This document shows, in pieces, positions 6,834 to 36,596 of a stretch of DNA of 36,596 nucleotides. Positions within the stretch are counted from its first letter, which is position 1; every line of letters starts with the position of its first letter. Origin of the DNA: Thermoproteota archaeon (GTDB lineage: Archaea; Thermoproteota; EX4484-205; JAAOZP01). The stretch covers positions 1 through 36,596 of the forward strand of contig JBNAVT010000022.1 in NCBI GenBank assembly GCA_049700215.1, in the 5' to 3' direction. The notes under the pieces are model-generated. The model saw only the letters and a program-made list of their open reading frames with translations, ran no database searches and was not told the DNA's origin. The position numbers were made by a program, and so were the translations under genes.

Positions 6834-6879
6834 TGAAGACAAAGGAAGAGGCCGCGATTTTTCACTTATATGGTTTTAC

Positions 6880-7253: not shown

Positions 7254-7709
7254 ATGTTCAGAAATGACTGCACGGTAAGGAGGGCTAGAGAAAGCGATTT
7301 GGAGACGATAATGAGAATTGAAAAGGCCTCTTTTCTCAAGTATCCCTACTCCTTCGAGGTTTTCGAAGAACTCTTAAGACGCTGTCCGGAATATTTTTTG
7401 ATAGCAGAATACAAAGGGGAGGTTTCGGGCTATGTTTGTGGAAGGCTTGTTAGAAAAGACATGGGAGAAGTCGTATCCATAGCTGTTGAGCCAAGGTTAA
7501 GGAGGAGAGGAATTGGCAGGATGCTGATGCTTGGGCTCGAGTCAAGGTTTAGGGCGGACCGTGTTAAAACCGTTCGTCTGGAAGTGGGTGTTGAAAACGA
7601 TGCAACTATACGACTCTACGAGTCGCTGGGTTATGAGACGGTTTGGTTAAGAATAGGATACTACCCTGATGGGAGCGACGCGTTGGTGATGGTTAAAAAC
7701 CTCTCGTGA
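7254..7709 (+). CDS. rimI: RimI/Ard1-like N-acetyltransferase (GNAT)
   Basis: IEKASF..PY, VVSIAVEPRLRRRGIGRMLM, LEV...N..IRLYESLGY, GYYPDGSDALVM. Confidence 0.88.
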   Translation: MFRNDCTVRRARESDLETIMRIEKASFLKYPYSFEVFEELLRRCPEYFLIAEYKGEVSGYVCGRLVRKDMGEVVSIAVEPRLRRRGIGRMLMLGLESRFRADRVKTVRLEVGVENDATIRLYESLGYETVWLRIGYYPDGSDALVMVKNLS

Positions 7710-7746
7710 AACAATGTTTATAATATTCGTCTGAGTGGGTTTAACC

Positions 7747-8145
7747 ATGACGGGCAGGATTGTCAGGACATCGGTCTCATTGCCAGGGGATTTGATAAAA
7801 GAGCTTGACAAGTTCGTGGATTCGATTAAATCCGACAGGTCTAAGGTTGTTCAGCAAGCGTTAAGGAATTTTTTAAGCATACCGCATGAGGAGGATGATA
7901 TGGTTTCAGGCTCCCTGATGATAGTTTACAGCCATGACAAACCTAGCCTAGAAGAAGAGTTGACAGATATCCAGCATAGATTCATCAGCCTGATTATTTC
8001 AAACATCCACATTCATTTAGACGAGCATAGATGCATGTTAACGATATTTGTAAAAGGAAGCTTCAAGGATGTTCAGAGCCTGATGAGAAGGATTACGGGC
8101 AGGAGAGGCGTGTTAATGGTCAGAGAGTCACTGGTGCGGCTTTGA
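7747..8145 (+). CDS. nikR: NikR-family nickel-responsive regulator (RHH plus NikR_C)
   Basis: RTSVSLP..L..ELD, DRSKVVQQALR (RHH). Metal ligands in IQH and HIHLDEHRC. TATA TTTATAAT at about 7717. Confidence 0.85.
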   Translation: MTGRIVRTSVSLPGDLIKELDKFVDSIKSDRSKVVQQALRNFLSIPHEEDDMVSGSLMIVYSHDKPSLEEELTDIQHRFISLIISNIHIHLDEHRCMLTIFVKGSFKDVQSLMRRITGRRGVLMVRESLVRL

Positions 8146-8162
8146 AATAAATAGTTAGGGGA

Positions 8163-9164
8163 TCACTCTGGGAACACTAAAATCTCCATGACTGACAATA
8201 GGAATACCATGTAGATGGTTAACAGGTAGAGACCTTCTCTTGAGCCAAGGTTCCCCTTATGCATTAAATACCATAAGAGTATGTTTGCGAGCGTTGAAAA
8301 AGCCACCAAGTCGGAGAAAACTTTGATGTTGAATCTTACTGGGGAAAAGAGAAGTGTTACTCCGAGTATAAGCGTAATGTTCGTGAAGCAGCTTCCTATA
8401 ACGTCGCCGAAGGCAAGATCCACATGCCCGTTCAACATGGCTTGAATATCCAGCGACAACTCCGGGAAGCTTGTCCCTACGGCGATAATGGTGGCGGATA
8501 TTATGGAGGCCGGTACTCCGATTATGAGGGCGATTTCTGCCGTTGAGTTAACCAGGATGTCTGCGCTGACAACAACCCCGATTATACCCATTAACCCTAA
8601 CACCGTGTGAAGCATTAACCTGCTTCTCCCACGATTCTTCGCTATGCCAGACTCAGCGTTTTCCTCCAGGGGGAGTTCTCTCTTTAAAATTATTTGAAAA
8701 GTGCGGTAGGCGTATATAAGTATCAGTATTAACCCGACGATCTTGCTAGCGGGCAGGAAGCTTATCAGGAGGATGGGAATAACGGATGCCGTGAATATCC
8801 CAAGGTACAGCATGTCGAGCTCTTCAGGTTTAAACCTGACAGGGGGGAGTTTCTTAGATCTTGTTCTGAAAGAATATAAGACTAAGCCTAATCCTATAAT
8901 CAGGCAAACGTTAGCAACGTTAGAACCCAGCACGTTCCCTATAGATACTGCGGCTTCTCCCGACATTGCTGCGAAAAAAGCTACTGCAAGCTCCGGTAGA
9001 GACGTTAATGTTGCTACTAGGGTGAAGCCTATTCTGGACTTCCCTAAGCCAGTTATCTCGGATATTTTCACGACGCTCCTAATGGCCACGTGGCTACTTA
9101 TTAAGAGCACTAGCAGAGAAACAGCCATGTTCGCAATGTTTAGCAAAAGTTCGTTCCCAATCAT
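8163..9164 (-). CDS. Na+/Ca2+ exchanger (CaCA, YrbG/NCX_Mj type)
   Basis: Alpha-1 repeat TSLPEL..GNVLGSNVAN and alpha-2 repeat GTSFPEL..GDVIGS; about 10 TM segments. Confidence 0.92.
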   Translation of the reverse strand: MIGNELLLNIANMAVSLLVLLISSHVAIRSVVKISEITGLGKSRIGFTLVATLTSLPELAVAFFAAMSGEAAVSIGNVLGSNVANVCLIIGLGLVLYSFRTRSKKLPPVRFKPEELDMLYLGIFTASVIPILLISFLPASKIVGLILILIYAYRTFQIILKRELPLEENAESGIAKNRGRSRLMLHTVLGLMGIIGVVVSADILVNSTAEIALIIGVPASIISATIIAVGTSFPELSLDIQAMLNGHVDLAFGDVIGSCFTNITLILGVTLLFSPVRFNIKVFSDLVAFSTLANILLWYLMHKGNLGSREGLYLLTIYMVFLLSVMEILVFPE

Positions 9165-12760: not shown

Positions 12761-13726
12761 ATGGCATTAGGCGGGTCGCAAAGGATCCTAGGCTTGGTTT
12801 ATGGGGAGGAACTGTTATCCTATGACTTCGGCCCAAGCCACGTGATGAATTCAGCCAGGCTTAAATCCTTCTTCACCTCTCTAGAATCATCCGGGCTGCT
12901 TTCAGACAACCGGATCCTTCTGATTAAGCCTAGGAGGGCCACAATAGAGGAGATAGCCCTCTACCATGACAGGAAGTACATAGAGTTCGTGGAGGAAATG
13001 TCTGAAGAGGGCAAAGGTCTTCTCGACCACGGGGATACTCCTGCTTTTCCAGGTGTTTTCGAAGCGGCGTCGCTTGTAGTCGGCTCCACGCTTGAAGCAC
13101 TTGAAGCAGTCGTGAGGCGAGACGCTTTATACTCTATGAACCCGATGGGAGGACTACACCACGCGAGGCGCGGCAAGGCGGCTGGGTTCTGTGTTTTCAA
13201 CGATATCGGTGTTTTGATCGAGAAGGCTAGAAGAGAATACGGCCTGAGAAAAATACTTTACGTAGACTTGGATGCTCACCACGGCGACGGAGTGATGTAT
13301 GATTATTATTATGACCCCAATCTTTTCATAGTAGATTTTCACGAGAACGGGAGGTATCTTTACCCTGGTACTGGCTTCGAAGGCGAGACTGGCGCTGGGG
13401 AAGCCGTTGGGACTAAGCTGAACCTTCCTTTAAAACCATGGGCGACCGACCGGGATTTCAAGGAGAAACTGGAGAAGGCTAAGCAGTTCATGTCTGAAGG
13501 CTCTTTCGAGTTGATGGTTTTCCAAGCTGGTGCCGACAGCGTTGCTGGAGACCCCATTACTCATCTGAAGCTTACCGCTCAGGCTCATCTCCATATCGTT
13601 TCCCTCCTTAAAGAGTTGTCACGCAGGTCAGGCATGTGCCCCTTGATAGTGCTGGGCGGTGGAGGGTATAATCCGAGTAACACTGCGGAAGTCTGGCTTA
13701 AAATAGTTAATGCTTTAATAGAATAA
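12761..13726 (+). CDS. Zn-dependent histone deacetylase family / AcuC-like deacetylase
   Basis: GGLHHA, GFCVFND, DLDAHHGDG, YPGTG, GAD...DP, LGGGGY. Confidence 0.92.
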   Translation: MALGGSQRILGLVYGEELLSYDFGPSHVMNSARLKSFFTSLESSGLLSDNRILLIKPRRATIEEIALYHDRKYIEFVEEMSEEGKGLLDHGDTPAFPGVFEAASLVVGSTLEALEAVVRRDALYSMNPMGGLHHARRGKAAGFCVFNDIGVLIEKARREYGLRKILYVDLDAHHGDGVMYDYYYDPNLFIVDFHENGRYLYPGTGFEGETGAGEAVGTKLNLPLKPWATDRDFKEKLEKAKQFMSEGSFELMVFQAGADSVAGDPITHLKLTAQAHLHIVSLLKELSRRSGMCPLIVLGGGGYNPSNTAEVWLKIVNALIE

Positions 13727-13794
13727 AAGGTTTACTAAAGGCCTCCGTAGACGCGTAAATGGTTAAATGGGCGTAGCCCCCCCGGTATGACTGC

Positions 13795-14700
13795 ATGAAG
13801 ACAGCCGTGTTGATGGAGCTCCTCGCAATATTCCTTTGGGCGTTGGGAAACATATTCGTAGCCTATCTTAACATGTTTTTCGACAATTATACTCAGAACT
13901 TTTTCAGGTTTGTTTCAGCCGCCATGGTGTTACTTTTTTTCTCCATGTTCTTAAACAAGGATGACTACTTAAACTCTTTGAAAAACCTGAAGATGCTTTC
14001 AACCCCAGTCTTCACAGTCTTCGCCTTCCAGATACTGATTGTTTACGGAATAGCTTTTACAACGCCAACCATAGCCACGCTAATAACTAGGCTCAGCATC
14101 ATCTTCGTCGACCTACTCTCCTTCCTCCTATTTCCGGAGGAGAAGGCAGCGCTTTCGAAAAAAGGCTTCGCAACCGGCACTATAATATCTTTCATAGGGG
14201 TTTCAGGGGTTGTTCTAACAGGTTCCGGTCTTTTCCACTCAGATGGATTTTTTCTAGCCGGAGTCGTCCTCCTATTGTTGGCCTCAATACTCTGGGCGGT
14301 TTACACGGTTTCCGTCAAGATTGTTCTTAGGGGTTCGGACCCGCTTTCAGCAACAGTCAACATATTCCTGTTTTCCGGAATAATGTACCTGCCCTTCTCA
14401 ATATTAACGGGGGGAATATACAGGGTTTTTAAAGTAGAGCCTGCTCTGAACCTGCTGCTAATCGTCTCAGGCATCCTTGCAGTAGGCTTAGCGAATTTTC
14501 TCAACTATTCCGCCATCCGGAGGCTGGGCGCATCCCTGCCTGCAAACCTTCAGATCCTCCTTCCGGTTTTCACCGGCGTGATGTCGGTTGCAGTGTTCCA
14601 TGAAGAAATGCAACCCCATAAAATCTTCTTCTCCGCCCTAACTTTGATCGGGTGCTGGATCATCGTTAAAACTTCAGAAAAAACCGTTTTAAAAGGCTGA
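13795..14700 (+). CDS. DMT/EamA family transporter
   Basis: Two 5-TM repeats (AIFLWALG..FFRF; SILWAVYTV..AIRRLGAS). Confidence 0.88.
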   Translation: MKTAVLMELLAIFLWALGNIFVAYLNMFFDNYTQNFFRFVSAAMVLLFFSMFLNKDDYLNSLKNLKMLSTPVFTVFAFQILIVYGIAFTTPTIATLITRLSIIFVDLLSFLLFPEEKAALSKKGFATGTIISFIGVSGVVLTGSGLFHSDGFFLAGVVLLLLASILWAVYTVSVKIVLRGSDPLSATVNIFLFSGIMYLPFSILTGGIYRVFKVEPALNLLLIVSGILAVGLANFLNYSAIRRLGASLPANLQILLPVFTGVMSVAVFHEEMQPHKIFFSALTLIGCWIIVKTSEKTVLKG

Positions 14701-14790
14701 GTGTTCAGTGTTAAACGTCTCCAGTGAACCCGACCTAGCCGGCACCTGTTCAATAGAAAACTTTATCCACATGGTTTAGCCGGCTGATTC

Positions 14791-16107
14791 ATGAGCACTA
14801 CGGATGAGCTTGTGAAGCTGCTTTCAAACCTGCTGCAAATAGACACCAGTAATCCACCTGGGAACGAGAGTAGTGCCGCAGGCTTCCTGAGAGACTGGCT
14901 TCGCGACAAGGGTGTTGAATCTGAAATCCTAGAGTTTGAGAAAGCAAGGGGGAACCTGGTTTCCAAGATAAAAGGGTCCGGTGAAGGACTCTCTTTACTC
15001 CTGCTTTCGCACACGGATGTTGTTCCCGCCGACCCAGCCAGGTGGAGGATCCCTCCTTTCTCAGGCGCTGTTAAAGACGGGTATGTCTGGGGGAGGGGAG
15101 CGTTAGACATGAAGAGCATGGTTGCTGTGGAAACAATGGTTTTCAGCGAAATGGTTGACAGGGAGTTGAAGGGTGACTTGGTTCTTGCAGCAACTGCCGA
15201 CGAGGAGAAAGGTGGCTCAGGCATAAAAGACATGATGGAGAAAGCGTTGGGAAAGATTGCTGTCGACTACGTTATAAACGAGGGCGGGGGGGAGGGGATA
15301 CTTACCAGGAAGGGTTGGCTTTTCGACATTCAGACGGCTGAAAGAGGGGTTTTTTGGTATCGGGTTCGTACAAAGGGTTCTCCTGCGCACGGCTCAGTAC
15401 CCGGGCTAGGGGTGAACGCTATAGATAGGATGCGCCCCCTACTTAACAGGGTTTCAGAATTCAAGGGAGCCAGCGAGAGGGTTGAGCCCTCTTGGAGGCA
15501 TGTTGAATCCCTGTTGAAAATGATGGGGCTCGCCGATGAAGAGGCTAGCATAAACATGAACAATATTGATATTCTACTAGACAGGTTGGCTGAAGCCGAT
15601 AAAGGACTGGGGGAGTCTGCGAAATCAATGCTTCGGGTTACGATGACGCCTACAGTGATACAGGGAGGTGTTAAGGAGAACGTTGTTCCATACGAGTGTA
15701 CGCTAACGGTTGACTGCAGGGTCCCCCCGGGCTACTCTGTGGAGCGTGTGAAAAGGATGATTAGGGATTTGTTCCATGGCCTCGAATACGAGTTGGAGTT
15801 CATACAAGAGTCGGAGCCCACCGTCTCCCCTGTTAACACCCCCTTATACAGGGCTGTTGAGAGTTCTCTCTTAAAACTGGTTCCCGGCGCTAGGCTTGAA
15901 CCAACTACGATGACCGGTGGAACTGATTCGCGATACTTCAGGAGGATAGGCATACCTGCATACGGCTTTCAGCCTTTAATGGTTGAGGGAAACTATTACG
16001 ACTGGTCTAGAATGGTGCACGGAGATAATGAAAGGATTTCAATAGAGAATCTAGTATTCTGTTACAGAGTGTTGAAACAAGTGGTGGAATCATTCATGTT
16101 GAAGTAG
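14791..16107 (+). CDS. M20 family metallopeptidase/amidohydrolase (ArgE/DapE-like)
   Basis: IDTSNPPGNE, HTDVVP, WGRGALDMK, DEE, NEGG, GGTDSR, HGDNERI. Confidence 0.92.
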   Translation: MSTTDELVKLLSNLLQIDTSNPPGNESSAAGFLRDWLRDKGVESEILEFEKARGNLVSKIKGSGEGLSLLLLSHTDVVPADPARWRIPPFSGAVKDGYVWGRGALDMKSMVAVETMVFSEMVDRELKGDLVLAATADEEKGGSGIKDMMEKALGKIAVDYVINEGGGEGILTRKGWLFDIQTAERGVFWYRVRTKGSPAHGSVPGLGVNAIDRMRPLLNRVSEFKGASERVEPSWRHVESLLKMMGLADEEASINMNNIDILLDRLAEADKGLGESAKSMLRVTMTPTVIQGGVKENVVPYECTLTVDCRVPPGYSVERVKRMIRDLFHGLEYELEFIQESEPTVSPVNTPLYRAVESSLLKLVPGARLEPTTMTGGTDSRYFRRIGIPAYGFQPLMVEGNYYDWSRMVHGDNERISIENLVFCYRVLKQVVESFMLK

Positions 16108-16182
16108 GACCAACTGTTCACGTGTTAGAAAGCATGTCGACTAAAGCCTGTTACGGATTAAAAAAAGCGTGGAACATACAGT

Positions 16183-16566
16183 TTAGATATATTGTTTGCA
16201 GTTGTAACAGTAGTATCTCTTATACTGTGGTATCCATGTTCCGGGCTTGCCACACTTAGGGCAGAGCGGTATTGAGGGTTGAGCTGCAGGAGCCGCTGCG
16301 GCTGGAGCTTGCTGTGCAACAGGTGCAGTAGCCATAGCAACCTGGGGTATCTCAATCTTCCTAGAAAGCAGGATTATGTCTCCAACAGTCTTCACGTCGC
16401 CCCACTCTATCTCAACAGTGCTGCCGGCTTTTGTCGAAATATACAGGGTTATGCCTCCCTCGCCTGGAACAAGCCCTATTTCCTTAACCGTACCTACGAA
16501 AAGGCAATCAGGGTCATAGACCTGCATGCCTATCAGTTTTGACTGAGGAATCCCTTTCCCACTCAT
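16183..16566 (-). CDS. PRC-barrel protein with Ala/Pro linker and C-terminal zinc ribbon
   Basis: KLIGMQVYD...VGTVKEI...IEWGDVKTVGDIILL (PRC barrel); CPKCG..TWIPQYKRYYCYNC. ATG 16566 fits the TATA at about 16591-16598 (- strand). T7 tract downstream at 16160-16166. Confidence 0.85.
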   Translation of the reverse strand: MSGKGIPQSKLIGMQVYDPDCLFVGTVKEIGLVPGEGGITLYISTKAGSTVEIEWGDVKTVGDIILLSRKIEIPQVAMATAPVAQQAPAAAAPAAQPSIPLCPKCGKPGTWIPQYKRYYCYNCKQYI

Positions 16567-16668
16567 CGCTGATGAGAACATTATAGGGTCATATATTAAC
16601 TTTCACGTTTTTCATCCAAGATGCCTATGGAAACATTTTTGAAAGACTAGGAACGCAGGCATCCGTCC

Positions 16669-17901
16669 TTAAGACATGCTAAGCTCATCCGCGTTCCTCC
16701 TAACCTTTTCGAACGCAGCTATTATGTCATCCATATCCTCCTTTGAGCCGAGCAGCACGTTCTGAGGCAGCCATAAGCCCTCCTCGTAACAAGCCTTCTC
16801 AGCCACAGGCAGGCTTAGCTTAGAGTAATCCATTGAACCACCGTAGTATGCGCAGGACAGCGGGCACTTTTTGAAATATTCGAAGTATGGCTCCCTATAG
16901 AGCGGCTTGGAATATCCAACGCTTACAGGTATTCCCTCTGCCTTCATCGCCTCGGCAAAACCAGCCTTGGATACTCCTCCGAAGGCCTCTGGGTCGTACC
17001 TGAATATGTAGAGGTGCCAAGCATGCCTAGTGATCCTCTCATCATTCTTCAGAGGCTTTAAACCATCTATTTTAGAAAGCTTGCTGTTAAGATAGCTTGC
17101 GTTCTCCATTCGTCTCCTCGTATGCTCGTCAAGCCTCTCGAGTTGAACGAGCAGTAGTGCAGCCTGAAACTCAGTCATACGGTAGTTGACACCGGGAAGA
17201 TAATGCTCGTACCATGCTCCCTGAGGGAGGCGGCCGCAGTTATGCAGGCTCCAAGCCTTAACGTACAGCTCCTGGTCACTTGTTACCGTGATTCCTCCCT
17301 CCCCGCTGGTAATGTTCTTGCTCGACTGGAAGCTGAAGCACCCGAAGTCGCCGAAGCTCCCTGTTCTCCTTCCCCTCCACTCTGCGCCCCAGGCTTGACA
17401 CGCGTCTTCAACCACACGCAGATCATGCTTCTCCGCTATCCTCATGATCTCATCCATGTTAGCCGGCCTGCCTCCTATGTGGACGGGGAGGATTGCCCTT
17501 GTTTTTCCAGTTACAGCCTCCTCTATTCTCCGAGGGTCAATGTTGAAAGTATCCGGCTCAATGTCGACGAAGACCGGTATGGCGTTAACGTAAAGGATTG
17601 CTGTGGCTGTAGCCATGAAAGTGTAGGGGGTTGTTATAACCTCGCTCCCGCAGCCTATTCCACATGCCCTGAGAGATATTTCAAGAGCGGTTGTGCCACT
17701 GGTAACAGCAACCCCATACTTCGCATGCTGGTATGCTGCGAATTTCTCCTCAAGCTGCTTAACGTATTGTCCCCCTATGCCCCACACGCTGCTTTCCAAA
17801 ACTTTTTTCAAAGCTTCAAGCTCCCTGTCATCGAAGACAGGCCATTTCGGAAATGGCTTATCCCTGACTGGTCTACCTCCCTTTAAGGCTAGTTGAACCA
17901 T
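16669..17901 (-). CDS. DegT/DnrJ/EryC1/StrS PLP-dependent sugar aminotransferase (AHBA-synthase-like)
   Basis: LALKGGRPV, SGTTAL, TFMAT, EDACQAWG, FSFQSSKNITSGEGG (PLP Lys), NYRMTEFQAA. Start taken as ATG 17901. Confidence 0.92.
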   Translation of the reverse strand: MVQLALKGGRPVRDKPFPKWPVFDDRELEALKKVLESSVWGIGGQYVKQLEEKFAAYQHAKYGVAVTSGTTALEISLRACGIGCGSEVITTPYTFMATATAILYVNAIPVFVDIEPDTFNIDPRRIEEAVTGKTRAILPVHIGGRPANMDEIMRIAEKHDLRVVEDACQAWGAEWRGRRTGSFGDFGCFSFQSSKNITSGEGGITVTSDQELYVKAWSLHNCGRLPQGAWYEHYLPGVNYRMTEFQAALLLVQLERLDEHTRRRMENASYLNSKLSKIDGLKPLKNDERITRHAWHLYIFRYDPEAFGGVSKAGFAEAMKAEGIPVSVGYSKPLYREPYFEYFKKCPLSCAYYGGSMDYSKLSLPVAEKACYEEGLWLPQNVLLGSKEDMDDIIAAFEKVRRNADELSMS

Positions 17902-18044
17902 GTCTCCAGCTTTATTCAAGCTGTATAAAAACATATCTCGCGAAATCAGCCTCAACCTCTTGACTCATCTCAATATCGTGGAACATTTTGAATATTTACC
18001 TTGCAAGGTTTAAATAAGAGAGGCGGGTGAATTAGAAGCCTGCA

Positions 18045-27751: not shown

Positions 27752-28567
27752 CTAGAGCGAGCTTAAGATGCTTTTCAAGTACTGAACGTCCCTCTTGGTT
27801 TGCGTCACGATCTCGGCCAGCGGCAAATCGTATTCGCTGTGTATAGATACTGGACCCTTGAAGCCCGTTTCCCCAAGTATTTCGAAAACCGTTTTCCACG
27901 GAACCAGTCCTTCTCCCAGCGGGACTGTTTTCACCCGCCATCCTCCCTCTTCTTTAAACCAGCCGTAATCCTTTACGGAAACCATCCTTATTCTTCTGCT
28001 CAGAATATCCATGCCCATTAGCCATCCTGCTAAGCCTCCCTCCACAGCCATGTGGCCAGGATCCACGTAGACACCAACAAGATCCGGGTTAAACCCTTTC
28101 AGAATCAGCCATACGACGGCTGGCTCCGCAGACATGAACATTCCTGAATGAACATGTATCGCCGAAGTCACCCGGTACCTCCTGCTTAACTCCTGAATCT
28201 TTCTAAGCTCCCTACGTATTTCCCCCACTTGTCTCTGGAGAAAGCCGAAACCCCTGTACTGCCAGTAGCCCAGCTTCAAGTATTTCACCCCGTTTTCGAA
28301 AGCCGCCTTGAAAACTTCCTCAGCATACGGCTGGTTGACACTAGTTATTTCAGTAGTTATCATCGGTACTTTCAAGCCTTTAGACTCGAATATTCCAACA
28401 GCCTCCGGAAGCTTTTCCAGCGCTTCGCTTGGCTTAATGTAGCCGTTTGACCTGACCGTCAGGTCGACGCCTTCTAACCCTGTTTCCGCAACTAGTTCCG
28501 CAAACCCAGTTAAAGGAAGGGGCTGAAACATTTTTGAAAAAAGGATTAGCCGCATTGCTTTACTCAC
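27752..28567 (-). CDS. Sugar phosphate isomerase/epimerase (xylose isomerase-like TIM barrel)
   Basis: GLEGVDLTVR, HVHSG, DPGH, SVKD, VPLGEG.VPW, GPVSIHSEY. Confidence 0.88.
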   Translation of the reverse strand: MSKAMRLILFSKMFQPLPLTGFAELVAETGLEGVDLTVRSNGYIKPSEALEKLPEAVGIFESKGLKVPMITTEITSVNQPYAEEVFKAAFENGVKYLKLGYWQYRGFGFLQRQVGEIRRELRKIQELSRRYRVTSAIHVHSGMFMSAEPAVVWLILKGFNPDLVGVYVDPGHMAVEGGLAGWLMGMDILSRRIRMVSVKDYGWFKEEGGWRVKTVPLGEGLVPWKTVFEILGETGFKGPVSIHSEYDLPLAEIVTQTKRDVQYLKSILSSL

Positions 28568-28579
28568 CCTTTTCCAGCA

Positions 28580-29938
28580 TCAAAACCCCAGGCCGATCGT
28601 CCCGTTTAAGCATCCTGTTCTTATCCTCCCATCCTTGACGTTAAAAACCTGAGGAAACTTTTCCTGAACCTCTTTAAAGGCTGAGGGCAAGTATTGTCTA
28701 GCATTATACTCAACCCCCATTATCGGGTTTGTTCTGGCGGCAAACCCTGCTGAATGCACGAAAGCCAGACCCGGGCAGGTTAAATCCTGTATGCTGTAGG
28801 GTACTCCAAGCTCTTCTGCTTTAGCCACTAGAAGAAGAATGGAGCTTTGACACTTGCATGTTTTCAACGCTACCCCGGACCAGCCTAGCCTCATTGACAG
28901 GTCGAAGCTCCTCAGGTCAGTAATGCCCTCGTCCGCTAAAACAGGCTTTACTTCAGCAACCCTCCTCATGTTAAACATGTGTTTCTCAATATTCCGGCTA
29001 ACCGGCTGCTCGATGTAAAGGATTCTTTCAAAGGCTTCAGGAGCCTCCCTCCTGACTCTTCGCAAGTATTCTAAAACAGCCTCCGGAGAGGGGTGCATCT
29101 CGTTAGAATCCACGGACAGGTAGAAATCCTTCTTACCCTGCTTCCTCAGCGCTTCAGACACGACTTCAGCTACTTCTCTTGTTCGTTTCACATCCCAGTC
29201 TGTATCGTTGCCGCTGAGCTTAATCTTGAAGCAGAATACTCCCTCCTTCTCAATCCATTCCTCAAGACTCTCCGGTGAGTCCCCAGCACCCTCCAAACCC
29301 GTCTCTTTTCTTCTCAACTCATCCAGCCCGCCGACGAGATGAAAAACCGGGATTTCAGAGGAGTATTCAGGTTTAACGTAGTCAGTTATGTACTTATTCC
29401 TGAATTTTTCTCCAAGGTAAAAGCTCAAGTCGTGGCTGACATGCCTGGGACCATAACCTTCGTAGCTGCATATTTCGTTAACCTTTCCAAACCCGTCGTG
29501 AAGAGATGCGTCTATCGGGGAAACGGCCACTAAAGACGCGAGAACAGGAAGCTCCTCCTTAAGCCCCAGTTCTGAGGAAACCCTTCTAGCAATACTGGGT
29601 ATCTCCTCCTCGTGTCTTGCAAACCAGTCTATGGGATGCATGAAGCGGCTCCCAGCCTCTTTAACCAGAAGCTCACCGTAGCGTTCGGCAACAAGCTTCA
29701 TGGCTTCAAGTTTTTTCTCATGCGTTTCCCCGGTGCTTGGAAAAGCCCATTCACAGGCCAATGGCATGGATCCTAAGCCTAGGGACTCCTTCCCATTCCT
29801 GTTTTTAACCACGGTTGTTACTGTGAGTGAAGTGGACTCCTCCACTATGACACTGCCGAATTTCAGAGGAGTCTTAAGCCTCTGGCTGTTGTATTCGAAA
29901 CTTATTTCAACCGGCCGAATGTCAGAATCCTTGCCCAT
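28580..29938 (-). CDS. Enolase superfamily (mandelate racemase/muconate-lactonizing-like) enzyme of unknown substrate
   Basis: SPIDASLHD, KxK motif FKIKL, metal ligands in DSNE, IEQP and ADE, then ALKTCK. Confidence 0.82.
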   Translation of the reverse strand: MGKDSDIRPVEISFEYNSQRLKTPLKFGSVIVEESTSLTVTTVVKNRNGKESLGLGSMPLACEWAFPSTGETHEKKLEAMKLVAERYGELLVKEAGSRFMHPIDWFARHEEEIPSIARRVSSELGLKEELPVLASLVAVSPIDASLHDGFGKVNEICSYEGYGPRHVSHDLSFYLGEKFRNKYITDYVKPEYSSEIPVFHLVGGLDELRRKETGLEGAGDSPESLEEWIEKEGVFCFKIKLSGNDTDWDVKRTREVAEVVSEALRKQGKKDFYLSVDSNEMHPSPEAVLEYLRRVRREAPEAFERILYIEQPVSRNIEKHMFNMRRVAEVKPVLADEGITDLRSFDLSMRLGWSGVALKTCKCQSSILLLVAKAEELGVPYSIQDLTCPGLAFVHSAGFAARTNPIMGVEYNARQYLPSAFKEVQEKFPQVFNVKDGRIRTGCLNGTIGLGF

Positions 29939-29966
29939 TGCGAAGGCGACACTAGTCTCACACTCT

Positions 29967-30917
29967 TTAACCTTTCGCTGAAGCCTCCGAGAATTGTTTT
30001 TTCAAAGCTGCTTCCCTCGCTTCAGAAGCCCGCTTAAAATACTCCTCCCTTGTTTCTAGGCTGAACTCTTCAATAATGCTCCCCACAGTAGTCTCCCCTG
30101 CTTCGCAAGACATGAGGAACACTGCTTCCGGCCGAGCCACTTCAAACCAGATCTTTGAACCATACTTCTCCTTCACCCGATCCATTTTTTCCCAGTTGTA
30201 GTCCAGATGCAGAACCTCGTAGTCCAGGTTTATGTTGCAGCATATAACCGGCTGGTAGATGCTTGAAACAGCTAGAACCCTGCCCAGGGGGTTTATAATC
30301 ATGCTCCCCCTGTCGTCCGCTATTGAGGAAACCATGTAGACGCCATGGTTGAAGGCCCATGTCTTTAACTGTAGCCCTCCAGGATACATGGATGGGAAGA
30401 ACACTATCTTAACCCGGTTCTCGGCTAGGCCCTTGATAACGTCTTCGAAATTCAGGTCGAAACATATTGCTACACCGAATCTCCCAAGATCCAGTTCAAA
30501 CGACCGAGGCTCAACCCCTGGCGTAACGCCTGCTTCAATCTCCCACATCGTAGGGTGAATCTTATCATAGCTTCCAACATACTCCCCGTCCACACCTATT
30601 AAAACAGCCGAGTTGTAAATCTTATTGCCGCTTCTCCGCATCACCGGGAAGATTATGTTAACCCTGTTTTCCTCGGCGAAACGAGAGACCCTGGAGAAAA
30701 TGGTTCCAGGGATTTCCTCCGCGTTCTCAACCATCTCCTCCGCACTTAACCCGAGGAAGGGCGAGCATTCGGGCAGGCAGATTATATCCGGCTTGTCGAA
30801 AACAGCTTTCCTCAAGAGGCGGAGTATTTCCACCATATTGTTTTCTATTGTTTCACCGGCTGTTTTCCTCCTTATTCCTTTAAAAGTCACTGAGGCCACT
30901 CGAACATGCTTCGCCAA
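29967..30917 (-). CDS. Carbon-nitrogen hydrolase (nitrilase/amidase family)
   Basis: Glu-Lys-Cys triad: CLPE, YDKIHP, AICFDLNF. TTG 30917 is preceded by SD-like GGAGGG. Confidence 0.9.
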   Translation of the reverse strand: MAKHVRVASVTFKGIRRKTAGETIENNMVEILRLLRKAVFDKPDIICLPECSPFLGLSAEEMVENAEEIPGTIFSRVSRFAEENRVNIIFPVMRRSGNKIYNSAVLIGVDGEYVGSYDKIHPTMWEIEAGVTPGVEPRSFELDLGRFGVAICFDLNFEDVIKGLAENRVKIVFFPSMYPGGLQLKTWAFNHGVYMVSSIADDRGSMIINPLGRVLAVSSIYQPVICCNINLDYEVLHLDYNWEKMDRVKEKYGSKIWFEVARPEAVFLMSCEAGETTVGSIIEEFSLETREEYFKRASEAREAALKKQFSEASAKG

Positions 30918-30938
30918 CTTGACCCTCCACACACTCGT

Positions 30939-30962
30939 CTTACGATTTAAATATTGCTTACG
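30939..30962. promoter_or_regulatory. Candidate bidirectional promoter: palindromic TATA flanked by CTTACG direct repeats
   Basis: ATTTAAAT at 30945-30952 lies exactly midway between TTG 30917 (-) and ATG 30980 (+). CTTACG at 30939-30944 and 30957-30962. Confidence 0.5.
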
Positions 30963-30979
30963 TTTTTAGAAACACGGCT

Positions 30980-32002
30980 ATGAGTCTAAAGGATGGGAAA
31001 ATCAGGGTTTTGATAACAATACCGAGGAGCCTCTATAAGAGGGTCTCCAGTTTTGAAGACGAGGAGAGGCTCAAGTCTTTTGCGGAATGTGTTTTCAACC
31101 CGTTGGATAGGAATCTGAACGAGGAGGAGCTATCCAGGCTCATTGTCAACATGGATGGGTGTATTACTAGCTGGGGTTCTCCAAGGTTCACTGAAACAGT
31201 GTTGAATAACGCGAACAGGCTTAAAATCATAGGTCACGCTGCTGGAAGCGTTAAACCCTATGTGACAGACGAGGTTTTTAAGAAAGGGATAGTCGTTGTT
31301 AACGCTGTCTCGACAATAGCCAAGCCGGTGGCAGAGTTCACCCTAGCCATGATCCTGAACTGTTTAAGAGGAATACCAAAGTATATTGAGGCAATGAGGA
31401 GGAGAAACTGGGTTTACAGGGATCAGAGATGCTTTACGACTTGTGATTTGAACGGAAAGACAGTGGGAATAATAGGGTTTGGTGCAGTGGCTAGAGAACT
31501 GGTGAAGCTTCTTAAACCGTTTGAGGTCAGCCTAATGGTGTACGACCCCTACGTTGAGCCAAGCCAGGTGGCTGCTTTCGGAGCGAGAAAGGTTGATTTG
31601 AACGAGCTGCTCGCATGTTCAGACGTTGTGACCCTGCATGCTGCTTTAACCCCGGAGACCCGGCACATGTTCGGCGAGAAAGAGTTTAGACTCATGAAGC
31701 CTACAGCATTCTTGATAAATACTTCCAGAGGCTCGCTTATAGATGAGAATGCACTGGTTAAGGCTTTAAGGGAGAAACAGTTAGCGGGGGCGGCACTGGA
31801 TGTTTTTGAACAGGAGCCTTTGGAGAGCAATAGTCCACTGTATGATTTGGAAGACGTTTTTCTAACACCCCACATAGCGGGCGGGTCTGACGAGAGTATA
31901 AGCCAGTTGTTCGGCACAGTCGTCGAGGATTTTAAAAGATTCTTTTCAGGAGAGAAGCCTATTAACGAGGTGCCGTACGAGAAGCTTAAAATTCTTGCTT
32001 AA
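30980..32002 (+). CDS. D-isomer-specific 2-hydroxyacid dehydrogenase
   Basis: HAAGSVK, GIIGFGAVAR, YDPY, INTSRG, ALDVFEQEP, TPHIAG. T7 tract after the stop. Confidence 0.93.
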   Translation: MSLKDGKIRVLITIPRSLYKRVSSFEDEERLKSFAECVFNPLDRNLNEEELSRLIVNMDGCITSWGSPRFTETVLNNANRLKIIGHAAGSVKPYVTDEVFKKGIVVVNAVSTIAKPVAEFTLAMILNCLRGIPKYIEAMRRRNWVYRDQRCFTTCDLNGKTVGIIGFGAVARELVKLLKPFEVSLMVYDPYVEPSQVAAFGARKVDLNELLACSDVVTLHAALTPETRHMFGEKEFRLMKPTAFLINTSRGSLIDENALVKALREKQLAGAALDVFEQEPLESNSPLYDLEDVFLTPHIAGGSDESISQLFGTVVEDFKRFFSGEKPINEVPYEKLKILA

Positions 32003-32125
32003 TTTTTTTGGAAAACACTGCTTTAAGCATATTGAATCTTCCTTTGTTTTTCACGAGCGCATTATTTTCCATTGAAAAATAAACACTTAAATAAAAAGAC
32101 CGGATGACCCACTGTAAACCGGTTA

Positions 32126-32815
32126 ATGAGAAAAGGATTAGGCGCAGAGGATGTTGCGGTCTCCATCCTGGAGAAGCTTGGTTACACGGTCTTGGAAAAA
32201 AGGAAGCCCGTGATCGTCGGAGGAGTAAAGGTTGCTGAAATAGATATGGTCGCCAGGGACCAAGAGGGGGATGTTTTAGCGGTCGAGGTTAAGTCTGGAA
32301 AAGCCTCCGTTACTGATGTTAGACAGGTCTTCAGCAACTCTAAGCTTTTAAAAGTTAAGCCGCTCCTAGTCTGTAAAGGGTTTTCTGATGCTTCAGCGGC
32401 TAGCCTTGCTAGCGAGCTGGGTGTTAGATACATCCTTCTCCCAGAGTACTACCTTTTCACGTTTGAAGATTTTAAAGAGGTTTCGAAGGAGCTTATAAAT
32501 GACTTGTTGACAATGTACTTGTCGCTTGATGTTGAGGAGATTAGTAGCGAGGAGGAGAGAATAGTTGAGGCTATTGCGAGTTCGAACAGCTTTTCAGAAG
32601 CCTCTGCGAAGCTGAACACTTTAGAGGAGGAGCTTGGAAAAATAATCTCCAATATGAATGTTTTCAAGCCCGGGGATAAACAGGGCTTCAGCCAACTTAA
32701 GCTTAGAGCACTGCTCGTTAAAAATAGGCTTAACGATAAGAGACTGATCAAAAGCATTGAGCGTAAACTCGATACTCTTGAAAAGAAAATAGACGCTTTG
32801 AGAGATAAAAAATAA
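32126..32815 (+). CDS. PD-(D/E)XK nuclease (YraN/Mrr-like) with C-terminal helical and coiled-coil region
   Basis: GLGAEDVA..LEKLGY, EIDMVA, AVEVKSG, DVRQ; heptad-like tail IERKLDTLEKKIDAL. Confidence 0.8.
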   Translation: MRKGLGAEDVAVSILEKLGYTVLEKRKPVIVGGVKVAEIDMVARDQEGDVLAVEVKSGKASVTDVRQVFSNSKLLKVKPLLVCKGFSDASAASLASELGVRYILLPEYYLFTFEDFKEVSKELINDLLTMYLSLDVEEISSEEERIVEAIASSNSFSEASAKLNTLEEELGKIISNMNVFKPGDKQGFSQLKLRALLVKNRLNDKRLIKSIERKLDTLEKKIDALRDKK

Positions 32816-32819
32816 GGTT

Positions 32820-33509
32820 TTACTTTTCCTGCAGCTTCCTATGACAGAACCACCAGTCGAAGCATTCTAATTCGCCTGCTTTAGCCTTCTCGGCACGGTT
32901 TCTCGCCGTTTCCACGTCTCTTGCTGGCGGGATTATTACGCGGTCTCCAATCAGCTCGTTGTTCGGCCAGTTGGCAGGCATTGCAACACCATTCCTGTCA
33001 GATATCTGCATGGCTTCAACAGCTCTAAGTATTTCATCCATATTTCTCCCCAGCTCCTGAGGATAGTAGAGGATTATACGTATCTTCCCCTTATCGTCGA
33101 CAACGAATACTGCTCTAACCGTGTTGGTTCCCTTGCCCGGATGGATGAGCCCCAGCTTTTCAGCAACCTCGCCAGTGTCAGCGATTATCGGAAACTTTAT
33201 TTCAACACCCAGCTTCTCCCTTATCCACTCCATCCATTTAATGTGCGAGAAAACCTGATCGACGCTGAGACCGATTAACTCGCAGTTTAACGCTTTAAAC
33301 TTATCGTGTCTTTTCTGGAAGGCAACAAACTCCGTCGTGCAGACTGGAGTGAAGTCCGCAGGATGGCTGAACAGCACGAACCATTTTCCGGAGAAAGCCT
33401 TAGGAAGCTCTATGACCCCGTGTGTAGTTTGCACCTTCATCTCTGGAAAATCATCTCCTAGAAGAGGCATGCCTCTCTTTCTAATCTCGACAATTTTCTC
33501 TAATTTCTC
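32820..33509 (-). CDS. Peroxiredoxin (archaeal Prx6-class thioredoxin peroxidase)
   Basis: [29 protein letters not shown]-terminal CFDWWFC. SD GGAGGT before ATG 33509. Confidence 0.95.
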
Positions 33510-33630
33510 CATTTTACCTCCATACAAATTACTCTGTCTTATATATAAAAACTTTTTTCGAAAAGGCAGAACAGTTTGAGAAAAATAGGAAGCGTAACAG
33601 CCTTTTACAGCTTGATCGCCAGATGCAGGC

Positions 33631-34590
33631 TCAAAACTGTTTCACCAGCCTCTTTAAGACTTGGACCGGAGGTTTTAAACCTATTTCTCTAAACGCTATA
33701 ATTAACGCTCCTACAGTAGGAGGGTATATGGGTCTCCTAACAGTAACCTTATTGTACTCTGATGAAAGATACTTCCGAATTCTTCTAACCAGTATGCCTG
33801 AATGACGGTTGAACATTCCTCCGACGAGGTAAATGTTCAACTCGTCTTCAGAGGTCAATCTCATCCGCCTAGCCACAGCCAGCAAGCCTCTTGAGAGAGA
33901 CAATGCAGCATTCTCAATTATGCTCCTGGCGACAACGTCCCCCTTCTCCGCCTCAGCTTTAACTATTTTTGCAAAGAGAGCTATACGCTCCTTCCTCATT
34001 TCGTGAACTCGTCTAGCCAACTCCTCCATGCTCCTAGCTTTGAAGAAACGCTTCGCCCTCTCCTCCAAGCTTGTCTCACTCCCTCTCCCGTCGTAAGACT
34101 GGAAAGCCGCTCTCAAAGCCTCTATTGCGACGGAGTATGCTCCACCCTCATCGTCAAAGACATGCCCCCAGCCACCAGCTCGGAAGAATAATCCTCCTGA
34201 AACACCTATAACTACTGAGCCCGTTCCAGCTATGACCACAATACCCTGCTTGTCAAACCCTAAGCAGGCTGCTGCAGCAGCCTCAACATCGCTTTTAATC
34301 AGGATTTTATCGGCCCTGATCTTCTCGCGAAACAGTTTCGCTAGTCTTCCACCTGCCGTCCAGGCTCCTGAGAGGCAGAGTGCAACGACTTCAGCTTCGT
34401 CACGCCCGATTTTCCTCAATGCCCCTTCAAACGCTTCCCTCACTGAAAAAAGGGTTGTTTCTGGGCCTGCGGAAAGAATGTTCGAAGGCCCGGATTTGCA
34501 TGCGGCGACACGCCAAGAACACGTCTCGACGGCGAGGCATCTGGTTGAGCTAGCACCCCCGTCTACACCGGCTATAACAATGTGTTTCAA
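33631..34590 (-). CDS. BadF/BadG/BcrA/BcrD-type ATPase, N-acetylglucosamine/N-acetylmuramate kinase-like
   Basis: [41 protein letters not shown]. 4-nt overlap with namZ. Confidence 0.88.
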
Positions 34591-35735
34591 TCGTATAGAA
34601 GAATCCTTCTGATTCTGGCTTTAAACTTTTTTTGCTCCTCCCTCAGTTTTGAAACTATCTCCTCAACACTCATCCCGCTTAGGATGTTTCTCCTAGTCTC
34701 GCTGTCGCCGAGCAGCCTATCCATCTTTCCATGGTCGACTTCAAACTCCACAGGGTTAGTCTCCAGCACGGATTGAATAATGTGCACCGCGACCTTGAAA
34801 GGCCTGACTTCCTCCGGGTCTTGAACCAGCAGGTGGACCCCTCTGCAAACCTGCCCCTTATGCTTCGACGAGAAAGGTATAAACCTCGTCTCCATAACGA
34901 GACAATCCTTGCCCAGTCTTCTTTTCAACGTGGAAACAAGCTCCGCCGACTTAAGCCAGGGGGCGCCGAAGACTTCGAACGGCTTATACGTTCCCCTACC
35001 TTCAGACAGGTTCGTTGCTTCAAGCAGAACCATTCCGGAGTAGAGCAGCGCAGTTACTGGAGTAGGTATTGCAGGCGAAGGATACACCCAGGGGAGGCCT
35101 GTTTCACGATAGTGCATCATCCTGCTCCACCCGGACATTCTAACCACGTGAGGAGGCTTCAAACCCTTATCGTAAGCGTAGAGGAGGCAGAGTTCACCAG
35201 GAGTCATACCGTATCTGAGCGGAAGATAATACGGTCCGACGAATGATTCCAGACCCTTCTTCAAAACCGGCCCCTCAACAGTAAGACCCCCCAGCGGGTT
35301 AGGCCTGTCAAGAACCATGAAGCCGACGCTGTTCCTACAGGCTTCTTCAAAACAGTTAAGCATCGTCGATATGTAAGTGTAGGTTCTGCAACCAACGTCT
35401 TGAATATCGTAAACCAGCAGGTCTAGGTTCTCAAGAGCCTCAACGCTCGGCTTCCTCTGGGGGCCGTATAGGCTTTGAACCCTAACCCTGTTTAAAGAAA
35501 GGCTTTCAGACTCCACAGGCTCACCCGCAGCATAGGCCCCCCAAAGCCCGTGTTCAGGCGTAAAAATGGTTTTCACCCGTATCCCTTTCTCTAGGAACCG
35601 TAGGTAAGATGGCTCAAGGCTTCTCGTCACGGACGTGTGGTTTACAACCAGCCCGATGCTTAGGCCGGAGAGCCTTTCAAGCAGTGTTTCCCTCTTGAGA
35701 AGAACGTCTAGGCCAGGCTTAACCCTACTCGCCAA
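34587..35735 (-). CDS. namZ: Exo-beta-N-acetylmuramidase NamZ (DUF1343), no signal peptide
   Basis: GLVVNHTS, PEHG, SLYG, DIQDVGCRTYTY, VLDRPNP, RYGMTPGE, WVYPSP, SEGRGT..PFE..GAPW, DRLLG. Confidence 0.92.
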   Translation of the reverse strand: MASRVKPGLDVLLKRETLLERLSGLSIGLVVNHTSVTRSLEPSYLRFLEKGIRVKTIFTPEHGLWGAYAAGEPVESESLSLNRVRVQSLYGPQRKPSVEALENLDLLVYDIQDVGCRTYTYISTMLNCFEEACRNSVGFMVLDRPNPLGGLTVEGPVLKKGLESFVGPYYLPLRYGMTPGELCLLYAYDKGLKPPHVVRMSGWSRMMHYRETGLPWVYPSPAIPTPVTALLYSGMVLLEATNLSEGRGTYKPFEVFGAPWLKSAELVSTLKRRLGKDCLVMETRFIPFSSKHKGQVCRGVHLLVQDPEEVRPFKVAVHIIQSVLETNPVEFEVDHGKMDRLLGDSETRRNILSGMSVEEIVSKLREEQKKFKARIRRILLYD

Positions 35736-35736
35736 A

Positions 35737-36450
35737 CTACTCGCCCAGGAGGCTTTTTCTCCTTATCCTCTTAACACCCCAGTCTCCGAATGTCATGAAG
35801 GCTTCCGCGTACTTGAAACCGACTTCAAGCCCCCTGATTCTTTTCAAGCAGGAATAGTAATCCACGTAGTTGAACCCGCTGTACTTTCCAGAGGTAAAAT
35901 CGTAAGTCTTAATCACATCCAAGTATTTTTCGAAAACATTGCTGACGTCGACATAAACCTCCGGCTGAAAGCCCTGCGGGTCCTCCCAGTTCTCCGGGTA
36001 GTAAAGCTCTACCGGCTCGCCGTGTTTCCCCTCCGCCCCCTGTTCTCCCGTGAAGCGTTCGAAAGCCTGTATAGCGAGAAGGTGGCATGCAAGATGATCA
36101 GGATGATAGCTTCCCTTCCAGTGCATCAGGATCGCGTCAGGCGTGAACTCTAAAATAGCCTTATACATCTTCACCTTAACCTCCTCAGCATCATAGGGTA
36201 CGCCCTCGACACACCCTAAGAAAACGGCTTCGGCATTCAGCTTCCTGGATGCTTCTAAAGCCTGTTTAACCCTTATTTCAGCATACTCCTCCGCGGAGAG
36301 CCCCGGCGGCCGGGCCCATTTGCCGGACGGCTTAAACATGTGGAGTATTAGACACCTCCCCCCGTCCTCAGCGTTCTGCAGAATTGTCCCGCCCGCCGTG
36401 ATTTCAACATCCCCAGTGTGGGCACTGAACGCGAGTATTTTAATGCCCAA
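35737..36450 (-). CDS. PIG-L/LmbE family N-acetyl-sugar deacetylase
   Basis: AHTGD (variant of AHPDD), AGG, HWKGSYHPDH, YVDVS, YAEAF. SD GGAGGGTGAT upstream. Confidence 0.88.
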   Translation of the reverse strand: MGIKILAFSAHTGDVEITAGGTILQNAEDGGRCLILHMFKPSGKWARPPGLSAEEYAEIRVKQALEASRKLNAEAVFLGCVEGVPYDAEEVKVKMYKAILEFTPDAILMHWKGSYHPDHLACHLLAIQAFERFTGEQGAEGKHGEPVELYYPENWEDPQGFQPEVYVDVSNVFEKYLDVIKTYDFTSGKYSGFNYVDYYSCLKRIRGLEVGFKYAEAFMTFGDWGVKRIRRKSLLGE

Positions 36451-36456
36451 GGGTGA

Positions 36457-36594
36457 TCACCCTCCTTCAAGACTCTTGGCGAAAACCGCGAACCTCCGGG
36501 TCTCAGACATGCCGTTCCTAACGTAGAAACTGTAGTTTCTCCCACCACCCCAAGCCAGCCAAGCATTCTTACCGCCGAGAGACTGGATAAGCCT
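36457..36594 (-). CDS. C-terminus of an upstream operon gene, probably a GNAT acetyltransferase (truncated by the window edge)
   Basis: Manual translation RLIQSLGGKNAWLAWGGGRNYSFYVRNGMSETRRFAVFAKSLEGG* has a GNAT-like 'FY..NG' end and stops 6 nt before the PIG-L start. Confidence 0.5.
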   Translation of the reverse strand, partial: RLIQSLGGKNAWLAWGGGRNYSFYVRNGMSETRRFAVFAKSLEGG

Positions 36595-36596
36595 TA

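Follow-up and report, generated by a model that had tools for sequence, protein, structure and literature searches.

Why does a hot-spring archaeon carry, side by side in one operon, relatives of the proteins with which bacteria process the sugars of peptidoglycan? The question is raised by contig C22 of a Thermoproteota archaeon (genome G000), which in its entirety is the window discussed here (the whole stretch of DNA that was analysed, 36,596 nt) and belongs to a 2.09-Mb metagenome bin that comprises 85 contigs and is rated at 94.6% completeness and 0.8% contamination. At the right-hand end of the contig lie four open reading frames (ORFs), which an earlier description made from the letters of the window (the sequence-only reading) had presented as co-oriented genes with gaps of 6, 1 and -4 nt. 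The ORF list confirms these spacings (6 nt, 1 nt and a 4-nt overlap, stop codons counted) and adds one correction, that all four genes lie on the minus strand:

36457-36594, minus strand: C-terminal fragment of a GlmA-like GNAT, 45 codons, running off the contig end
35737-36450, minus strand: predicted PIG-L/LmbE metal-dependent sugar N-deacetylase, 237 aa (PF02585, 64.6 bits, 1.7e-17)
34587-35735, minus strand: NamZ (DUF1343, GH171), exo-beta-N-acetylmuramidase homologue, 382 aa (NamZ_N 4.6e-68, NamZ_C 1.4e-43)
33631-34590, minus strand: BadF/BcrAD-type ASKHA sugar kinase, MurK-like, 319 aa, candidate 6-kinase for N-acetylmuramic acid (MurNAc) as well as for N-acetylglucosamine (GlcNAc) (PF01869, BcrAD_BadFG, 135 bits, 4.6e-39)

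The analysis indicates that this operon is quite probably the core of a cytoplasmic pathway of bacterial type, which consumes peptidoglycan amino sugars imported as soluble fragments. Cytoplasmic catabolism of imported bacterial wall debris had been the central proposal of the sequence-only reading, and it is now supported by the presence of MurQ, AnmK, NagA and NagB in the same genome and by searches that found neither MurB nor a true MurA. The proposal stands, every function included, on homology and gene context.

The remainder of the proposed pathway

The window ends inside the GNAT gene, and a second contig of the same genome, C65 (5.4 kb), is oriented so as to continue it:

C65:2-661/673, minus strand: remainder of the GNAT, residues 21-244 at 673-2 (~220 N-terminal residues)
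C65:746-1759, divergent from the GNAT gene: murQ (TIGR00274, 363.9 bits; scored stretch 788-1657)
C65:1710-3908, minus strand: GHL6+GH42M glycosidase-like protein, a single 732-aa frame adjoining murQ

Because MurQ scores above its equivalog cut-off of 302 beside the GNAT gene, a predicted MurNAc-consuming step exists, which the sequence-only reading had suggested looking for outside the window. The same arrangement is seen at locus L017 of congener G002, where a 337-aa SIS protein, divergent from a 330-aa tandem GNAT, scores 364.9 bits on TIGR00274 (cut-off 302) and is followed by GHL6 and GH42M glycosidase-like frames. Further, anmK and nagB, also sought by the sequence-only reading, are both present, and with nagA they occupy three other contigs of the genome at scores above curated NCBIfam equivalog cut-offs:

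Contig C36: AnmK (438.8 bits, cut-off 387)
Contig C4: NagA (322.2 bits, cut-off 225.65)
Contig C69: NagB (333.8 bits, cut-off 236.9)

Genes for MurNAc synthesis, in contrast, were not found in what was searched: MurB had no match in the genome, and the top match to MurA scored 56 bits against a cut-off of 392.7 and is presumably a related enzyme. MurNAc would therefore not be made by the organism itself. The catabolic genes also occur together. Of 41 relatives, 15 have NamZ, 17 have MurQ above its cut-off and 16 have AnmK; every one of the 15 with NamZ has MurQ, 14 of them have AnmK, and the two relatives with MurQ and without NamZ are 77% and 57% complete. Neither NamZ nor AnmK had a match in any of four archaeal control genomes.

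In the proposed order of steps, soluble murein fragments would enter through an ATP-binding cassette (ABC) importer, for which an Opp-type system beside anmK is the candidate, and an AmiE/PBP4b-like PF00144 hydrolase would remove the stem peptide. NamZ would then free MurNAc from the non-reducing end, for example from MurNAc-beta-1,4-GlcNAc. The MurK-like kinase would convert MurNAc to MurNAc-6-phosphate, and probably GlcNAc to GlcNAc-6-phosphate, and AnmK would act likewise on 1,6-anhydro-MurNAc. MurQ would split the lactyl ether, giving GlcNAc-6-phosphate and D-lactate, and NagA and NagB would lead on to fructose-6-phosphate. The GlmA-like GNAT would most likely re-acetylate glucosamine (GlcN), or GlcN-ended fragments of de-N-acetylated walls, so that the glycosidases and kinases could act on GlcN-type fragments as well.

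The first two of these steps are assigned to neighbours of AnmK. On C36, anmK is followed by a gene for a 360-aa PF00144 ('beta-lactamase family') protein, whose best NCBIfam match is E. coli PBP4B at a score below cut-off, and then by an Opp-type ABC ATPase gene; in congener G008, the same locus extends further, to a second ATPase and a permease fragment and then to GH36-like and GH3 genes. The sugar ABC importer that the sequence-only reading had suggested looking for is absent from the operon, and the Opp-type system beside anmK is a candidate for it. The PF00144 protein is a candidate for peptide removal because B. subtilis AmiE (YbbE) is filed under PF00144 in Table 1 of PMC10653849; AmiE is described as an exo-MurNAc-L-Ala amidase that acts with NagZ and NamZ (PMC8054146).

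The same gene set could be imagined as offensive or defensive, with the archaeon lysing neighbouring bacteria and the operon processing the products; exo-acting NamZ, NagZ and AmiE of B. subtilis do degrade intact peptidoglycan in vitro (PMC8054146). However, a crude Kyte-Doolittle hydropathy scan finds no hydrophobic N-terminus in NamZ, in the AmiE-like protein or in the glycoside hydrolase (GH), and no hydrophobic N-terminus or transmembrane-like segment in NamZ, PIG-L, GNAT or MurQ, which agrees with the earlier statement that no signal peptide is seen. Moreover, the lysin families GH25 and SLT/GH23 had no match in G000 and GH73 had none in any of the 17 genomes of the genus, G000 included (other lysin families were not searched), and Amidase_2 and Amidase_3 had no match in this 94.6% complete genome. 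A lytic role is thus very unlikely. Since no MurB, true MurA, Amidase_2 or Amidase_3, GH25, SLT or GH73 was found, MurNAc would be taken from outside as soluble fragments, and the organism seems to scavenge fragments that bacteria release and not to be a lytic predator.

Two side observations concern the neighbourhood of murQ. The intergenic stretch between the GNAT gene and murQ (C65 ~662-745, and the matching stretch of L014-L018) holds two AT-rich boxes kept in six genomes, one with ATATAAG and the other with TTTATCA, which may be the two archaeal TATA elements. The cluster itself showed no gene for a regulator. The GHL6+GH42M protein is one frame in G000 and two frames (405 + 310 aa; L017 5306-7503) in congener G002, and G023 has a 52% identical homologue ~8 kb from its NamZ gene. 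No NCBIfam model matches the GHL6+GH42M protein, whose Atlas neighbours are uncharacterised and mostly bacterial; it could be the pathway's missing exo-glycosidase.

Predicted substrates of the individual enzymes

NamZ shows the two-domain architecture of its family at near full length (PF07075, the Rossmann-like NamZ_N, 229.1 bits; PF20732, NamZ_C, 149.7 bits), and two solved DUF1343 proteins match it over nearly its full length (4k05, 4.2e-64; 4jja, 9.7e-38). Its motifs, which had been called intact, hold up across the family: of the 42 archaeal and 28 bacterial alignment rows, 41 and 24, respectively, keep E61 (PEHG), and 42 and 27 keep R247 (GRGT). By position offset, and not by sequence alignment, these residues would correspond to Glu92, at the tip of strand beta-2, and Arg279, of the C-terminal domain, which are the putative catalytic residues of B. 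subtilis NamZ (PMC8054146).

The kinase has as its best solved relative the clostridial MurK 8zo3 (1.8e-37 over residues 6-302), with which it shares the DxGxT, GTGS and GGWGH motifs and which outranks the hexokinase 2e2n of S. tokodaii (2.2e-28). It is a candidate MurK-like MurNAc kinase with GlcNAc as a probable second substrate. In MurK of T. forsythia, the pocket for the lactyl ether is formed with the small residues S133-P134-L135 and T94 (PMC10465942); this MurK is absent from the sequence matches of the archaeal kinase.

The GNAT, which the sequence-only reading had labelled with a question mark, is a tandem GNAT. Its 45-codon fragment in the window matches the C-terminal end of a 330-aa tandem GNAT from five congeners at 91-96% identity, and the remaining N-terminal part is on C65, so that of a full length of ~310-330 aa some 41 codons are missing between C22 and C65. 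Because the gene is divided between contigs, the structure was modelled on a congener protein that is 95.5% identical (predicted local distance difference test score, pLDDT, 86.5). The top Foldseek matches of the model are 4zm6 (E 1.4e-22), a fungal GH3-fused glucosamine N-acetyltransferase, and then GlmA of clostridial wall recycling (5kf1/5kgh, E ~1e-20), the two known glucosamine N-acetyltransferases. Against 5kf1/5kgh the template-modelling (TM) score is 0.77-0.81 and the root-mean-square deviation 2.8-3.0, compared with TM scores of at most 0.70 for other tandem GNATs; 5KF1 is named as the GlmA of C. acetobutylicum in PMC10936415. Titles of mutant entries in the PDB give D287 and Y297 as catalytic residues of GlmA. 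Y309 of the archaeal GNAT is invariant in a 14-sequence alignment. The chances that the GNAT re-acetylates GlcN-type ends as GlmA does are about even.

The PIG-L protein keeps H11 and D14 (AHxxD) and H116, D118 and H119 (HxDH) invariant in 15 aligned sequences. Its model (pLDDT 89.3) finds as top Foldseek matches the Pyrococcus diacetylchitobiose deacetylase (Dac), B. cereus BC1534 and BshB (TM scores 0.71-0.78). Its NCBIfam matches are all below cut-off (BshB1, 64.2 against 182.5; Mca, 27.7 against 277; BshB2, 25.1 against 195), and it is accordingly placed in no named subfamily (BshB1, MshB or Dac). It is a predicted sugar N-deacylase, and assignment of an exact substrate is doubtful, the best guess being GlcNAc, a GlcNAc-ended disaccharide or an unusual N-acyl wall sugar. 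That it works on the free sugar instead of NagA is not a necessary assumption: because NagA is present in the same genome above its cut-off, PIG-L need not stand in for it.

A different substrate for the whole cluster has also to be weighed. The cluster could turn over a polymer, made by this or by other archaea, whose lactyl-ether or acetamido sugar is other than murein MurNAc, or could chiefly salvage GlcNAc-6-phosphate for the organism's own N-glycans and S-layer and less for energy. Glycan genes are indeed abundant around it: the window encodes a DegT/LegC-like aminotransferase, GT2 and PMT-like transferases adjoin the cluster in G002, and the uncharacterised GHL6/GH42M glycosidase adjoins murQ; moreover, the specificity of the NamZ family is known for few members only (PMC8054146). 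However, MurQ, AnmK, NagA and NagB exceed equivalog cut-offs that were built on murein-recycling enzymes, neither MurB nor a true MurA was found in the genome, and in bacteria NamZ is flanked by the same partners. In addition, the substrate of AnmK, 1,6-anhydro-MurNAc, arises from the action of bacterial lytic transglycosylases. Use of GlcNAc-6-phosphate for glycan synthesis fits consumption of imported peptidoglycan sugars and is no alternative to it. Turnover of an archaeal polymer is, on this balance, unlikely.

Several observations weigh against a peptidoglycan-sugar pathway as proposed. The NamZ family is varied in specificity, a preprint on NamZ1 and NamZ2 of T. forsythia stating that it includes enzymes of 'distinct substrate specificity', and from its sequence it is not certain that this NamZ releases MurNAc. 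The kinase falls under all NCBIfam cut-offs (NagK_SO3507, 95.8 bits against 370). Foldseek fails to separate Dac, BC1534, BshB and GalB as relatives of the PIG-L model, and it seems contradictory that one operon should hold both a deacetylase and an acetyltransferase. There is no transporter in the operon. No canonical MurNAc-L-Ala amidase (Amidase_2, Amidase_3) was matched in the genome, so that peptide removal rests on the analogy with AmiE. No NagZ above cut-off was found among the four of five GH3 matches that were scanned (the gene on C7 was not scanned); for nagZ, which the sequence-only reading had suggested looking for, there is one weak candidate, a 514-aa GH3 protein whose NagZ-model score of 77.6 bits lies below the cut-off of 207, and the other three scanned resemble beta-glucosidases or xylosidases. 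The operon is split over two contigs of a bin, with the ~41 GNAT codons unassembled. Finally, the module is patchy within the genus, being present in 8 of 17 genomes (G000 counted), mostly the larger ones.

A broader version of the peptidoglycan proposal is possible, though we hold it tentatively and with more doubt than belief: an old murein-eating regulon across Thermoproteota, with the GNAT and PIG-L as an editing couple and the GHL6/GH42M protein in the place of NagZ. Under such a regulon, the couple would perform 'N-acyl editing' that brings variant wall sugars back to the normal form (it might, for instance, put acetyl groups back on GlcN or muramic acid, strip N-glycolyl groups or open muramic delta-lactam), and the GHL6/GH42M protein beside murQ would be a new exo-glycosidase replacing NagZ. 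If this were true, there would be a sizeable unrecognised archaeal sink for bacterial wall carbon and nitrogen in hot springs and sediments, and both the GNAT/PIG-L and the GHL6/GH42M steps would be ones that are characterised nowhere so far.

Residence of the module in archaea

Since the operon lies at a contig end in an 85-contig metagenome bin, with a local guanine-plus-cytosine (GC) content of 0.51-0.52 against ~0.48 for the whole contig, and since all six families are typically bacterial, it might be bacterial DNA misjoined or misbinned into an archaeal genome. The evidence leaves this explanation close to negligible. The GC content of the operon falls inside the contig's own range of 0.43-0.52. 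The archaeal context noted by the sequence-only reading is borne out by an archaeal small-subunit rRNA fragment in the bin, by a family-B DNA polymerase encoded on C22 itself and by the nearest named NamZ relatives, which among the matches listed are from a Thermoproteota archaeon. Moreover, the order peroxiredoxin, kinase, NamZ, PIG-L, GNAT, murQ is kept in five congeners (contigs of 52-180 kb, protein identities 72-96%), where it follows the same archaeal flank of CN-hydrolase, 2-hydroxyacid dehydrogenase and UPF0102 genes.

Independent assemblies point the same way. In run X1, which of the public runs holds the window best and is a hot-springs metagenome, possibly the source sample, a contig made by a different assembler spans positions 30000-34275 with 0 differences, which covers the stretch 33500-33700 over which read continuity had been questioned. 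This contig, together with the synteny in five congeners, practically excludes a chimera with bacterial DNA. A second contig of run X1 begins at 36392 and extends ~2.2 kb past the end of the window. At position 35616, inside NamZ, the window has A and the run X1 contig has G, a single difference at a depth of ~8.5. Three other runs, X2, X3 and X4, contain small shares of the window in short pieces, and no RNA dataset was among the runs listed as containing it.

The organism's class comprises one order and 26 species-level genomes in the genome collection. NamZ occurs in 41 of 401 sampled Thermoproteota genomes and 20 of 161 genera, including the one-contig 2.08-Mb genome G077. Clusters of NamZ, MurQ and kinase lie inside archaeal contigs of 0.65-1.08 Mb (G095, G177 and G379), and that of G033 is ~5 kb from a thermosome gene. 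Across 26 further archaeal NamZ loci, the genes within ~7 kb include MurQ in 20, a BadF kinase in 19, a PF00144 protein in 14 and AnmK in 8; the GNAT-then-PIG-L pair occurs in 9, always together and adjacent. NamZ stands without MurQ, kinase, GNAT or PIG-L within ~7 kb at L147, L149 and L151 (family f25, which includes G077).

Similar partners are found in bacteria. Among 77 bacterial NamZ loci, those flanking NamZ are PF00144 proteins (23), AnmK (11), BadF kinases (10) and MurQ (9), and collinear arrangements are seen for GNAT-PIG-L-NamZ in a Chloroflexales locus (L041) and for GNAT-PIG-L-PF00144-NamZ in a Bacillota locus. In Planctomycetota L069, L072 and L087 (~6500-9130), single frames of 796-884 aa fuse a PF00144 domain to NamZ, a fusion that points to joint action of these activities; L069 and L087 have another NamZ paralogue after the fusion, and murQ and a BadF kinase gene are divergent in all three.

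The history of NamZ was addressed with two trees, one of 70 rows (42 archaeal and 28 bacterial) and one of 97 rows. For the smaller tree, 53 of 81 bacterial rows were omitted, three as long branches (L037, L042, L055) and 50 as at least 52% identical to a kept row. In both trees, the NamZ of the window falls in a clade of its own genus and one genus from a second family of the class (10 rows, Shimodaira-Hasegawa-like approximate likelihood-ratio test, SH-aLRT, 97), and the 70-row tree holds a separate, purely archaeal clade (26 rows, 10 families, SH-aLRT 94). A small number of further archaeal copies lie among bacteria, and the deep forks are not settled by either tree. Forcing all 42 archaeal rows into one clade cost 10.3 log-likelihood units and was not rejected by the approximately unbiased (AU) test (p-AU 0.295), the group having been chosen after the tree had been seen. 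The choice between an archaeal clade and recent transfer, raised by the sequence-only reading, is thereby answered in one part: the gene is not a recent transfer, since the nearest bacterial NamZ, among the matches listed, is 43-46% identical, whereas the trees neither demonstrate nor reject one archaeal clade. Judged from these sequences, NamZ is long established in these archaea, and the trees leave one and several acquisitions as two readings.

Known systems and neighbouring genes

The families from which the archaeal module is built are those of the systems with which B. subtilis and C. acetobutylicum recycle and catabolise MurNAc, and by homology the module would work like these systems. 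The B. subtilis operon murQ-murR-murP-amiE-nagZ-namZ (PMC8054146, PMC5061867) shares NamZ, MurQ and an amidase of the PF00144 AmiE type, and the predicted logic is similar, in that glycan ends are trimmed by exo-enzymes and MurNAc-6-phosphate is converted to GlcNAc-6-phosphate and D-lactate. However, the NamZ, NagZ and AmiE of B. subtilis are described as secreted, with MurNAc entering phosphorylated through the phosphotransferase system (PTS) protein MurP, whereas in the archaeon there are no signal peptides seen, no PTS and no MurR, phosphorylation would fall to a soluble BadF-type kinase and to AnmK, the GNAT and PIG-L genes are extra, and the host is without murein. In C. acetobutylicum, MurK (8zo3; cited in PMC10465942) is the best solved relative of the archaeal kinase and GlmA superposes on the GNAT model, and both systems would use a cytoplasmic kinase route and not a PTS; the differences are an identity of GNAT and GlmA of ~18% in the structural alignment and a host that is an archaeon.

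Two further systems lie outside bacteria. The chitin pathway of Thermococcales (Dac and the exo-beta-glucosaminidase GlmA; PMC6566704) is archaeal and likewise employs a cytoplasmic PIG-L/LmbE deacetylase on an acetamido disaccharide; Dac structures are the top Foldseek matches of the PIG-L model, and a GH42-related glycosidase lies near the archaeal cluster. In contrast to the cluster, the chitin pathway is without MurQ, NamZ, AnmK and GNAT, and the sequence match of PIG-L to Dac is weak (3e-6), no better than that to BshB or BC1534. Anaerobic ciliates, which have no murein, carry the same set by lateral acquisition: pbp4b (PF00144), NamZ, anmK, murQ and a nagB-PIG-L fusion, which the authors of PMC13198582 read as a pathway for digestion of bacterial walls. 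This set is the nearest conceptual parallel to the archaeal module, with the differences that the ciliates are eukaryotes feeding by phagocytosis and that their PIG-L is fused to NagB, whereas that of the archaeon is free-standing and paired with a GNAT. For archaea, a full-text search of the literature gave no description of NamZ, MurQ, AnmK or the pathway, with the limit that supplementary tables of papers on metagenome-assembled genomes may list the genes; the main text of the founding NamZ paper (PMC8054146) does not contain the word 'archaea'. The module would offer a clean case of a multi-gene catabolic set passing between domains.

Peptidoglycan makes up one of the largest stores of dead microbial matter, and bacteria are credited with its turnover. 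NamZ, a MurK-like kinase, MurQ, AnmK, NagA and NagB together form a coherent predicted pathway that would offer archaea a concrete, testable way of feeding on carbon and nitrogen from bacteria, and the hot-spring archaeon probably feeds in this way on fragments of dead or growing bacteria. About one in ten of the sampled Thermoproteota genomes has NamZ, and the cluster provides thermostable candidates for poorly studied enzymes, namely GH171, MurK and the GNAT/PIG-L pair.

The D-lactate that MurQ would release draws attention to two other places in the genome. For the D-2-hydroxyacid dehydrogenase of the window (30980-32002), a role as D-lactate oxidiser is not supported, its best NCBIfam matches being phosphoglycerate dehydrogenase-like and glyoxylate reductase-like, all below cut-off. 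On C4 (34000-53999; L123 6346-14686), nagA stands in a row with genes for a YdjC-like carbohydrate deacetylase, an MFS transporter and an AAC(3)-like N-acetyltransferase, beside which lies a divergent GlcD-like FAD oxidase gene with EtfA and EtfB; as a speculation, an Etf-coupled D-lactate dehydrogenase at this place would suit the D-lactate of MurQ. On C36, the minus strand of 3855-7346 holds a gene for a 1163-aa HdrA-like flavoprotein/ferredoxin, broken by an intein with a LAGLIDADG domain.

Within the window, Rfam and tRNA scans gave no match. Further hydrolase and sugar genes lie at 12761-17955 and 27752-30932, where there are a histone-deacetylase-family protein, a LegC/PseC-like aminotransferase and a series of genes of xylose-isomerase-like, enolase-superfamily and CN-hydrolase type. 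The same two stretches also include an M20 deacylase of ArgE/DapE type (TIGR01910, 217.4 bits against a cut-off of 217.6), which could be relevant to the handling of stem peptides or diaminopimelate.

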